A stretch of DNA of 4,301 nt, from the IMG/VR virus record IMGVR_UViG_3300000293_000103, one strand, 5' to 3'. The notes under the pieces are model-generated. The model was given only the letters and a program-made list of their open reading frames with translations, made no database searches and was not told where the DNA came from. The stretch comes from a virus (Duplodnaviria; Heunggongvirae; Uroviricota; Caudoviricetes). Below are positions 1-4,139 of this stretch, piece after piece. Made by a program: the position numbers and the translations under genes. Positions within the stretch are counted from its first letter, which is position 1. Each line of letters begins with the position of its first letter.

Positions 1-68
1 TCAAAACAACCTTCAGACGTATTAACGTTTGGTAATAACGTTTTCATTATCGCGCCCTCAACAATGAG

Positions 69-208
69 TTTTGTGATGCGGTGCCTGGTGCCTCCAGGTG
101 ACGTTAACCAGTTAACAATTAACGCCGGATACAGAGAATCCACCCATAACACTGTTTTTGGTTTTAACTGTTCCGCGTGCGCTTAGCCGCATTCACCGCA
201 TCACAAAA
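69..208. repeat. Perfect 15-bp inverted repeat pair (TTTTGTGATGCGGTG at 69-83; CACCGCATCACAAAA at 194-208) enclosing 110 bp
   Basis: Exact reverse-complement match read directly. The enclosed segment contains a CCTGG-N5-CCAGG palindrome (84-98) and closely spaced TTAAC repeats (104-108, 112-116, 119-123). No ORF on either strand. Confidence 0.8.
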
Positions 209-350
209 TTCACTTTAAAAAGGGCGGCAGAGCAGTCACGGAGTAAAACTGATACCGCCAAATGTCACCAGAAAATTGATAACAGAGGGCGTTGCAGCGG
301 GGTTGTCACTTAAGCGTATGGTCAACCTGACAACCCGGTGTCCTCAACGG

Positions 351-2913: not shown

Positions 2914-2984
2914 CTGACAATAGCCATATCGAATCGCTTCCGGCAACTCGTGAGTAAAAAGATTCGGTATCAGAAGAGGTGAGT

Positions 2985-4139
2985 ATGGCTAACGCCTGGC
3001 TCAGATTATGGCATGACATGCCAAATGACCCTAAGTGGCGAACAATTGCCAGGGTGTCAGGGCAGCCAATTGCAACAGTGATGGCAGTGTATATCCACCT
3101 CCTGGTGAGCGCGTCACGAAATGTCACGCGAGGTCACATTGATGTCACGACAGAAGATTTGGCAAGTGCGCTCGACGTGACAGAAGAGGTAATTGATTCA
3201 ATTTTGCAGACGATGCAGGGGCGGGTACTTGATGGTGATTTAATCACTGGATGGGAAAAACGCCAGGTGCTGAAAGAGGACAACGGCAATATTTCGCAAA
3301 CCGCAAAGTCTCCGGCAGAGCGCAAGAGGGCGCAGCGAGAGAGGGAAAGAAAGCGGGAACAAAATGGCGATTGTCACGGCGAGTCACGAAATGTCACGCA
3401 CATGTCACGACGAGTCACGACAGATAAAGATACAGATAAAGATACAGATCAAGAAGATCAAAACACTATGGTCCATGGCGTAAAAAACGCCACGAACCAG
3501 GCAGGGGATGTTCAGACCGTCACTCCTGGCCAGCCCGCAGGCACGACACCGGAAGCCGATTCAGCGTATGCGCTGAAAGCCGATTCGGGCGCTGTGCAGC
3601 AGGTGATGACCGCAAGGCAGGAGCAATCACACCAACTTCAGCAGCCTGAAGCCGATTCCGCCATTCAGCGGGAANNNNNNNNNNNNNNNNNNNNNNNNNN
3701 NNNNNNNNNNNNNNNNNNNNNNNNNNNNNNNNNNNNNNNNNNNNNNNNNNNNNNNNNNNNNNNNNNNNNNNNNNNNNNNNNCACCGGGCAGCCTATGGGA
3801 CGAGTGGATTATCCTGATGTGTTCGAACAGGTCTGGCGGGAATACCCGTTGCGTGCCGGGGCAAACCCGAAGAAATCCGCTTTCAGTGCCTGGAAAGCCA
3901 GATTACGCGAGGGGGTGCCACCAGAGGCCATGCTGGATGGCGTGAGGCGTTACGCAAGATACCTTGCGGCTACCGGGAAAACGGGAACGGAATTTGTTCA
4001 GCGAGCGACGACGTTTTTTGGACCGGACCGGAATTTTGAAAACCCCTGGCTGCTCCCGGTAAGCGGCACGAACAACCAGCGTTGTGTGAATCATATTTCT
4101 GAACCGGATACCGAAATTCCACCGGGCTTCAGGGGGTAA
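2985..4139 (+). CDS. Phage replication initiator-like protein (lambda O / Rac YdaU-type), with iterons and a low-complexity linker inside the gene
   Basis: ATG 2985 preceded by GAGGTG with a 5-nt spacer (the track's GTG 2979 is 2 codons upstream); TAA at 4137-4139. Structured N-terminal domain, charged KR/DE-rich linker coinciding with the DNA repeats, conserved-looking C-terminal domain (YPDVFEQVWREYP...FSAWKARL...RYARYL...FFGPDRNFENPW). The frame is assumed continuous across the N gap at 3675-3781. Confidence 0.7.
   Translation: MANAWLRLWHDMPNDPKWRTIARVSGQPIATVMAVYIHLLVSASRNVTRGHIDVTTEDLASALDVTEEVIDSILQTMQGRVLDGDLITGWEKRQVLKEDNGNISQTAKSPAERKRAQRERERKREQNGDCHGESRNVTHMSRRVTTDKDTDKDTDQEDQNTMVHGVKNATNQAGDVQTVTPGQPAGTTPEADSAYALKADSGAVQQVMTARQEQSHQLQQPEADSAIQREXXXXXXXXXXXXXXXXXXXXXXXXXXXXXXXXXXXXTGQPMGRVDYPDVFEQVWREYPLRAGANPKKSAFSAWKARLREGVPPEAMLDGVRRYARYLAATGKTGTEFVQRATTFFGPDRNFENPWLLPVSGTNNQRCVNHISEPDTEIPPGFRG
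3113..3149 (+). repeat. Iteron cluster A: four direct GTCAC(G/A) repeats at 3113, 3123, 3133, 3144 (10/10/11-bp phasing), plus an inverted GTGAC at 3177-3181
   Basis: Read directly; the 17-mer GTCACGAAATGTCACGC is identical to one in cluster B (3383-3399). Confidence 0.65.
3373..3419 (+). repeat. Iteron cluster B: five direct GTCACG repeats at 3373, 3383, 3393, 3404, 3414 (10/10/11/10-bp phasing); candidate origin core
   Basis: Read directly; helical-turn phasing is typical of initiator binding sites (lambda ori lies inside O). Immediately followed by the AT-rich repeat. Confidence 0.7.
3421..3464 (+). repeat. AT-rich tandem repeat (CAGATAAAGATA x2, then degenerate CAGATCAAGAAGATCAAAAC) with two GATC sites; candidate DNA-unwinding element
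   Basis: About 70% A+T, A-skewed on the plus strand, adjacent to iteron cluster B; GATC at 3447-3450 and 3456-3459. Encodes the DKDTDKDTDQEDQ linker peptide. Confidence 0.6.
3675..3781. other. Run of 107 N (gap or masked) inside the replication gene
   Basis: Literal N characters; 107 is not a multiple of 3, so reading-frame continuity of the flanking ORF is an assumption. Confidence 0.95.

Follow-up and report, generated by a model that had tools for sequence, protein, structure and literature searches.

DicF, DicB and KilR are classic prophage inhibitors of Escherichia coli cell division, and the post-transcriptional control of their toxic expression is partly understood. The locus considered here raises the question of what a perfect inverted repeat does in the spacer between two of these inhibitors, DicF and dicB. 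The repeat lies in a stretch of 4,301 nucleotides (nt) of the viral record IMGVR_UViG_3300000293_000103 (Caudoviricetes); this whole stretch, referred to below as the window, corresponds to the early-left operon and the immunity region of a lambdoid, Qin-like E. coli prophage. The inverted repeat is genuine and is functional at the RNA level. Its arms are probably the two strands of a helix, here termed P1, that is processed by ribonuclease III (RNase III) and belongs to a conserved folded RNA of the dicF-dicB spacer. Such a processing helix is, in our opinion, the most likely role of the repeat, and for K-12 it has essentially been known since 1990. Compared with the papers searched, three points appear to be new: the RNA enclosed by the helix is conserved, pseudoknotted and homologous to STnc100; the module recurs in front of kilR, an icd/ant-like operon and small hydrophobic open reading frames (ORFs); and the length of P1 separates embedded from free-standing copies.

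Location of the inverted repeat

The window holds a single perfect 15-mer inverted repeat: TTTTGTGATGCGGTG at 69-83 is matched 15/15 by its reverse complement at 194-208, with a spacing of 110 nt, and the repeat reaches 19 nt (65-83 and 194-212) if one mismatch is allowed. Analytically, such a repeat is expected by chance ~0.008 times at any spacing and 0.001 times within 300 nt; first-order Markov simulations produced one in 5/300 cases at any spacing and in 0/300 within 300 nt. This agrees with an earlier sequence-only reading of the window by a model, which had judged a 15/15 match improbable by chance in 4.3 kb. The same reading had pointed out a CCTGG-N5-CCAGG palindrome and three TTAAC repeats, all of which were found again (85-99; 104-108, 112-116 and 119-123), as was TTAACG at 22-27.

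Left of the repressor gene, transcription uses the minus strand throughout. Of 5,426 complete E. coli genomes, 4,646 have a match to the first 350 nt, at a median of two places each, and 4,683 have a match to the element alone. The Qin locus of K-12 is alignable throughout, with a mean column identity of ~98%. Both phage Tritos and K-12 have DicF annotated at the corresponding place, and dicB is annotated in phage Tritos and under E. coli hits of 100% identity. Because DicF occupies 222-274 and the start codon of dicB 47-45, the repeat segment is the spacer between DicF and dicB. The distance from the DicF terminator to dicB is ~175 nt, and the order of the operon is ydfABC-dicF-dicB-ydfD. The K-12 annotation has no entry for the element, either between DicF and dicB or in Rac. 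The features of the region, in the direction of transcription, are as follows.

222-274, minus strand: DicF small RNA (sRNA), 53-nt form, mapping to 274-222 (Rfam RF00039, 77 bits at 222-273)
217-221, minus strand: U-tract of the DicF intrinsic terminator, GCCGCCC-UUUUU-AAAGUGAA, directly abutting the element
194-214, minus strand: 5' arm of P1, from the fold (helix 1, 21 pairs, 9 of them compensatory); the perfect repeat part is 194-208
175-190, minus strand: P2 hairpin GCGGC-UAAGC-GC(A)CGC (helix 2, 99% paired, nearly invariant)
127-174, minus strand: P3, a hypervariable arm, of which the 3-bp base alone is conserved (G174-C127, G173-C128, A172-U129)
164-170, minus strand: 5' strand of a predicted pseudoknot, CAGUUAA, complementary to UUAACUG at 109-115 in the P4 loop
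100-126, minus strand: P4 hairpin GGCGUUAAUU-GUUAACU-GGUUAACGUC, which holds the three TTAAC (helix 4, 10 pairs, 5 of them compensatory)
84-98, minus strand: P5 hairpin CCUGG-AGGCA-CCAGG, which is the CCTGG-N5-CCAGG palindrome (helix 5, 100% paired)
63-83, minus strand: 3' arm of P1, from fold and covariation; the perfect repeat part is 69-83
1-59, minus strand: start of dicB, with the ribosome-binding site (RBS) GAGGG at 55-59 and AUG at 47-45; its translation, read from the sequence, begins MKTLLPNVNTSEGCF..., and the gene runs off the left end

It had also been stated that no ORF covers the segment. Mechanically this is inaccurate, in that plus-strand ORFs can be drawn at 64-186 (40 aa) and 158-313 (51 aa). 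The former lies on the non-transcribed strand; a frameshift shortens it to 12 aa in 5/6 of the copies found upstream of kilR, and the equivalent start codon is absent in 7/20 aligned copies, the sixth kilR-type copy among them. RefSeq annotates no coding sequence at the repeat segment in K-12 or strain 127. Because ORF 64-186 is unconserved and no RefSeq coding sequence is found there, the segment is non-coding in practice, as had been supposed. A protein-coding gene was rejected on this lack of conservation and on the variable length of the P3 interior.

A consensus scan of positions 1-350 found no promoter-like site on the transcribed strand, and no terminator-like site was found in the same interval. 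The 3' arm is followed by no U-tract and continues ...CACAAAACUCAUUGUUGAGGG; an intrinsic (Rho-independent) terminator was therefore rejected. Weak Rfam matches in the window to Trp_leader and ZEB2_AS1_2 were judged to be due to chance.

Fold and covariation of the spacer RNA

P1 consists of 15 + 5 bp around one A-C mismatch, formed on the minus strand between the 5' arm (194-214) and the 3' arm (63-83). Its 5' end directly follows the U-tract of the DicF terminator, and ~15 nt separate its 3' end from the dicB start codon. Enclosed by P1 are P2, P3, P4 and P5 and the pseudoknot described below. The minimum free energy of the minus-strand element is -61.7 kcal/mol (z = -6.1), and the same fold is obtained in the context of a 290-nt transcript.

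Diverged copies of the element are found ~20 nt upstream of dicB, of kilR, of an icd/ant-like operon with isrK and C4, of a 94-aa ORF, and of hydrophobic ORFs of 36-46 aa. The kilR copies are those of Rac-type prophages, including Rac of K-12, in which the annotated sRNA KilS takes the position of DicF. In K-12 Rac, the mapped 3' end of KilS is the last U of its terminator U-tract, and the element starts immediately after it. An sRNA terminator precedes 39/45 of the copies with a long P1 stem, as counted by eye, since the automatic terminator finder misses the bulged terminator hairpins of DicF and KilS. These long-stem relatives come from E. coli, E. albertii, E. ruysiae, Shigella, Citrobacter, Klebsiella, Raoultella, Enterobacter and Pseudescherichia. 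Across copies, conservation is high in the 5' and 3' thirds of the element, and the P3 interior, of which several alleles occur, is unalignable between homologues.

Folding and covariation had been proposed as a check on the sequence-only reading, and both spoke for a structured RNA. In an alignment of 20 diverged homologues with 44 pairs, which served as the covariation set, 98% of cells are paired as specified and both sides change in 16/44 pairs. None of 500 shuffles reached 98% or 16 pairs, and sliding the partner by 1-3 columns left 33-42% paired. RNAalifold, run on the 20 sequences, independently gives the same five helices with compensatory changes at 16 pairs. The P1 arms of the Klebsiella, Citrobacter and Raoultella types are unrelated in sequence (e.g., AACAGACCUUGCAAUGCAGUG and CACUGCAUUGCAAGGUCUGUU) and still pair over 18-24 bp. 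An A-U pair in the base of P3 is replaced by C-G through compensation (helix 3), and a U-A pair of P5 becomes G-C in the bridging and STnc100-type copies described below. Compared with the window, K-12 carries C-to-U changes on both arms, which result in two G-U wobbles in P1; the K-12 helix has 21 contiguous bp including these two, and Rac-type copies have 22-23 bp with one bulged A.

The strand of the structure can be read from the same alignment. G-U wobbles account for 97/870 pair cells, and when the pairs are taken from the opposite strand, canonical pairing falls to 88%. With a covariance model made from the alignment, the window scores 179 bits on its minus strand and 37 bits on its plus strand. 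Because of the G-U wobbles and these strand-specific scores, the structure is that of RNA of the dicB-sense transcript, not of a DNA site. Thus, of the possibilities raised by the sequence-only reading, a structured sRNA, the part that holds is the structured RNA, whose arms pair in the minus-strand transcript with strong covariation; a free-standing sRNA gene was not shown.

Several further pairings were considered. P1 can be extended in dicB-type copies to 27-30 pairs (27 in L128, which is identical to the window) by pairing of the U-tract and AAAG (217-221) with the dicB RBS region UUGAGG(A/G) at 53-60. The extension is weak, being made of U-G and U-A pairs, and is missing from kilR-type copies; occlusion of the RBS by it would be speculative. 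Pairing of the variable arm or of P4 with the dicB start region was rejected as a 7-nt palindromic coincidence that is absent in kilR-type copies, and pairing of the element with the 5' region of DicF as merely two 6-nt matches. The 290-nt fold also paired the dicB RBS with GCCCUC upstream of DicF, which was rejected as well, a K-12 mismatch weakening the pairing as judged by eye.

Individual copies add some detail. In the K-12 Rac copy (L007 1771-1775), the 3' strand of P5 reads CCAGA and not CCAGG, so that the closing pair is broken, and this element may be slightly degenerate. In L021 (4747-5234), DicF, the structured element, isrK and the C4 antisense RNA stand in a row, followed by an icd/ant-like ORF; the icd/ant-like operon is thus a third kind of downstream module for the same leader. 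In two truncated copies (L006 1501-1574 and L119), just P4, P5 and the 3' arm of P1 are left before dicB, and their junction to unrelated DNA is inside P3, which suggests deletion or recombination there. One window-type copy lies inside a tRNA array on the 94-kb plasmid pGF4-B (L005 1501-1612). Matches in unrelated metagenome-assembled genomes are either E. coli-like contigs or chance hits to the short P2 motif. Copies nearly identical to the E. coli type were seen in bins labelled Veillonella, Nanosynbacter and Collinsella (L157, L163 and L164); these contigs were most likely assigned to the wrong genome bin.

Probable processing of P1 by RNase III

The second line of evidence comes from published work on K-12. 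DicF is reported to have two 3' ends, of which that of the 53-nt form arises by intrinsic termination; the other is RNase III-dependent, lies 19 nt past the 53-nt form and yields a 72-nt DicF (PMC5069750 and PMC9438474, citing Faubladier 1990). With the 5' end of DicF at 274, counting places the 3' ends of the 53-nt and 72-nt forms at 222 and 203, respectively. The end of the 72-nt form, between U203 and G202, is therefore within the 5' arm of P1, and a reported RNase III cut at that place counts against explanations at the DNA level. Table S1 of Gordon et al. 2017, in which an RNase III mutant is compared with the wild type by RNA-seq, places an RNase III-dependent site at MG1655 1649470 in the dicF-dicB intergenic region (26 reads in the mutant, 0 in the wild type) and gives it as known ('Known? 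Yes'). In an older review, the intergenic regions of dicA-dicF-dicB are named among the substrates of RNase III. No entry for dicF or for coordinates 16494xx is present in the 3'-end supplements of Adams 2021.

P1 itself has the dimensions of an RNase III stem substrate, i.e., about two helical turns (~20 bp or more). RNase III leaves a 2-nt 3' overhang, and an in-vivo rule has been described for the two base pairs between its staggered cuts (PMC6212723). Between cuts at 203|202 and 73|72 these pairs are G204-C73 and U203-A74; a G-C pair is present, which fits the rule, provided that the length of 72 nt is exact. On folding, the core from 202 to 73 (130 nt) keeps its structure and is closed by a stem of 9 bp, which is as long as the outer stem in free-standing sRNAs of the STnc100 type.

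The following sequence of events is proposed. Where transcription reads through the DicF terminator, P1 would form and would be cut by RNase III. The cut in the 5' arm at 203|202 would give the 72-nt DicF, the sole documented product. A staggered cut in the 3' arm would be placed at 73|72 by the 2-nt overhang rule and would leave a dicB mRNA with a leader of ~25 nt. Both cuts together would release the folded core from 202 to 73.

The scheme resembles the RNase III stems that flank 16S and 23S rRNA, those of the phage T7 early intercistronic sites, and that of the metY-nusA leader, in which the flanks of a folded RNA pair over about two turns. By analogy, cleavage in the helix may separate upstream and downstream products. 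Unlike in those systems, a cut in the 5' arm alone is documented here, and via secondary sources.

A number of points weigh against processing at P1. The end of the 72-nt form is known through the two secondary sources cited above, and its length is uncertain by 1-2 nt. The summary of the same work by Ragunathan et al. gives just an RNase III site upstream of DicF, although both sites, upstream of DicF and in P1, may exist. The site of Gordon et al. rests on 26 reads and lies 36 nt past the end of DicF, which is inside the element and not exactly in P1. All of the cleavage evidence comes from K-12, a near-identical locus, rather than from the window sequence, and P1 of the window has an A-C mismatch at the 16th pair that is absent in K-12. 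Finally, we infer, and do no more than infer, the second cut, the release and stability of the core, and any effect on dicB expression.

The upstream site is distinct from P1. Ragunathan et al. describe an RNase III site, upstream of DicF, that produces the 5' end of a 190-nt DicF. This end maps to a separate upstream hairpin; the idea that the upstream site forms the other half of a P1 duplex was rejected, as that hairpin is separate and local. In the window, a 13-nt inverted repeat (495-507 and 553-565, 92% complementary) is the homologue of this K-12 hairpin. A further RNase III-dependent site of Gordon et al. 2017, at MG1655 1418510 in the kilR-sieB spacer (L007 ~2011; 41 mutant reads, not flagged as known), is just upstream of the 5' end of KilS and may correspond, in Rac, to the RNase III site that precedes DicF.

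Relationship to STnc100

The sequence-only reading had recommended a search of RNA-family models, which did yield a relative. Rfam STnc100 (RF02076) matches the minus strand at 70-210 with 38.8 bits (E = 4.4e-6), below its gathering threshold of 47 bits. The match covers positions 21-154 of the 206-position model, so that the 5' 20 nt and 3' 52 nt of the model are absent, and the outer stem of the model corresponds to the inverted repeat. Other long-stem, bridging or related copies are likewise below the threshold (L002, L004, L005, L007, L037, L042, L078 and L090), and true STnc100 copies, often in tandem beside tRNA genes, score 69-132 bits. The window element is thus not a member of RF02076 as curated. 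In the other direction, a covariance model of the long-stem class recovers STnc100-type copies at 30-65 bits (E of 2e-6 or better). Because matches are found in both directions, the window-type and STnc100-type classes are homologous. A scan of viral contigs for the shared 3' motif gave 144 hits, with CCUGG/CCAGG in the window type and CCGGG/CCCGG in the STnc100 type. Bridging forms (L037, L042 and L090) combine a 5' domain of the window type with a hairpin of the STnc100 type.

The two classes share an outer stem that closes hairpins, a variable middle arm, and an origin in lambdoid phages of Enterobacteriaceae. They also have in common the junction GGUGAAU, the 3' hairpin CC(U/G)GG-AGGCA-CC(A/C)GG followed by CACC, and a pseudoknot that covaries across both. 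Unlike STnc100, the window element has a different P2 stem sequence, has no promoter-like or terminator-like site of its own, and lies in an early-left operon before a kil-type gene, not in a late or tRNA/stx region. The outer stem is 18-30 bp long in the window class versus 4-9 bp in STnc100. STnc100 is also seen as EcOnc27/sRNA103 downstream of stx2 and is related to PasD; these free-standing relatives are reported to be expressed and Hfq-bound (PMC12711010; bioRxiv 10.64898/2026.05.13.724894). DicF and KilS, which are made in the same transcript as the element and whose terminators it directly follows in Qin-like prophages and Rac, respectively, are of another kind. They are Hfq-dependent base-pairing sRNAs with a simple hairpin terminator, whereas the element is a multi-helix pseudoknotted RNA of ~150 nt.

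The length of P1 is associated with the genetic context. The 112 unique elements include a class with a long P1 (at least 15 bp, n=44) and one with a short P1 (fewer than 10 bp, n=60). A Shine-Dalgarno sequence and an ORF are found within 60 nt in 44/44 long-P1 copies, and a terminator-like or promoter-like site in 0/44. Among the short-P1 copies, 42/60 have a terminator-like site within 90 nt, 14/60 a strict sigma-70 promoter-like site, and 3/60 an ORF. This distribution fits a scheme in which a long, RNase III-cleavable P1 serves embedded copies as promoter and terminator serve free-standing ones. Tandem arrays of free-standing STnc100-type copies were observed in L018 (2265-3380, four copies), L030 (342-1038, three) and L013 (1121-1794, two), and tRNA genes adjoin those in L018 and L030.

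The predicted pseudoknot

From sequence complementarity, a pseudoknot is predicted in which CAGUUAA (164-170), directly 3' of P2, pairs with UUAACUG (109-115) in the P4 loop. Both strands are invariant in the long-stem class, but across the superfamily they covary, giving 11 different duplexes with 6 or more Watson-Crick pairs at the same position. A register-free test of complementarity against permuted partners gave a mean longest complement of 5.18 for true partners versus 3.35 +/- 0.14 for permuted ones (maximum 3.78 in 500 permutations). The model-fitted alignment was judged unsuitable for such counts, as its loops are of unequal length and it includes reverse-strand hits. The Rfam structure line of STnc100 has no such pairing, and the pseudoknot is an addition for future models of the STnc100 family.

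Alternative explanations

The position of the element invites the thought that it acts in cis, as a leader of toxic kil-type genes whose core senses a protein, a ligand or temperature, or controls the translation or stability of dicB and kilR; cutting by RNase III would then be incidental or the output step alone. Indeed, all 44 long-P1 copies lie at a fixed short distance upstream of an ORF, and these ORFs are mostly small and plausibly toxic (DicB, KilR, the hydrophobic peptides of 36-46 aa and the icd/ant-like operon). The loops are invariant and the pseudoknot covaries, as is typical of partner-binding RNAs. The terminator U-tract with AAAG can pair with the ribosome-binding region of dicB (UUGAGGA), but this pairing is weak and absent in kilR-type copies, and both the RBS and the AUG are outside P1. 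Moreover, free-standing homologues end in terminator-like sites without an ORF, so that the core can exist without a downstream gene. The alleles of P3 point the same way: nearly the same allele precedes dicB in L070 and the icd/ant-like ORF in L021, and a Qin-type allele precedes kilR in L117. P3 alleles are shuffled with respect to the downstream gene, and therefore P3 is not co-evolving with the gene that follows. A cis-acting leader is, on balance, a possibility that we regard as doubtful. The homology to STnc100, detected both ways, could instead suggest an independent trans-acting sRNA gene of the STnc100/PasD/EcOnc27 type, with a promoter of its own and base pairing through the variable arm, which, hypervariable and set in a constant scaffold, is reminiscent of a variable seed. 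The reported expression and Hfq binding of EcOnc27/sRNA103 and PasD are in line with this suggestion. It is nonetheless unlikely, given that the consensus scan found no promoter-like site in 1-350, that no terminator-like site follows the 3' arm, that the match stays below the Rfam gathering threshold with the ends of the model missing, and that, in the work of Ragunathan et al., the dicBF operon showed no internal promoter upstream of DicF.

Explanations at the DNA level, which the sequence-only reading had put forward as paired sites for a dimeric regulator or recombinase or as the remnant of a mobile element, and to which a linker for module exchange may be added, are in our view very improbable. 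They would account for a repeat that is perfect in the window and for its place at a mosaic boundary, with DicF or KilS upstream and dicB, kilR or the icd/ant-like operon downstream in various combinations, as well as for truncated copies whose junction is inside P3. However, the arms are kept as pairs, not as sequence: they change yet stay complementary, the G-U wobbles make the structure strand-specific, and RNase III is reported to cut within it. No sign of transposition was seen; the copies examined are in phage or prophage contexts, most of them at the same operon position. A miniature transposable element was rejected because the arm sequences differ completely between lineages while complementarity is retained. 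Use as a linker could be a by-product of conservation and would leave the compensatory changes unexplained. An RNase III processing helix that closes a conserved spacer RNA thus remains the preferred explanation of the repeat. A more far-reaching version of it, which we put forward tentatively and hold to be less likely than the processing role itself, is that the dicF-dicB spacer, like the kilS-kilR spacer, is an operon-embedded member of a large superfamily of pseudoknotted phage RNAs (STnc100, PasD, EcOnc27) in which a hypervariable arm is set on a constant scaffold. Cleavage of the long P1 by RNase III would replace promoter and terminator and would free a stable core of ~130 nt; produced along with a cell-division inhibitor, this core would act in trans or bind a factor of the host or the phage.

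Implications for prophage inhibitor operons

These results suggest that the spacer before dicB and kilR is not a linker but an RNA that is conserved and has a defined fold, and that an RNase III site reported since 1990 gains a structural explanation. They also suggest a tie between this locus and the STnc100/PasD/EcOnc27 family, a member of which, beside stx2, is statistically associated with disease severity. A rule follows for the superfamily, namely that long-P1 copies are expected to be released by processing and short-P1 copies to be transcribed as units. If the core is active, the pseudoknot and the invariant loops would be signs of a particular three-dimensional fold that has a partner; if the core is merely degraded after cleavage, the spacer would be an ordinary intercistronic processing site.

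Other features of the window

The window contains two runs of N, at 351-446 (96) and 3675-3781 (107). The first corresponds to ~8 nt (GGGAAGGA) in strain 127 and K-12, so that it hides an insertion or an assembly gap. A 386-aa ORF (2979-4139) downstream of cro- and cII-like genes, assumed from its position to be an O-like replication gene, contains clusters of direct repeats of the GTCACG type (3113-3151 and 3373-3421). These repeats look like the origin iterons of a lambdoid replication module.

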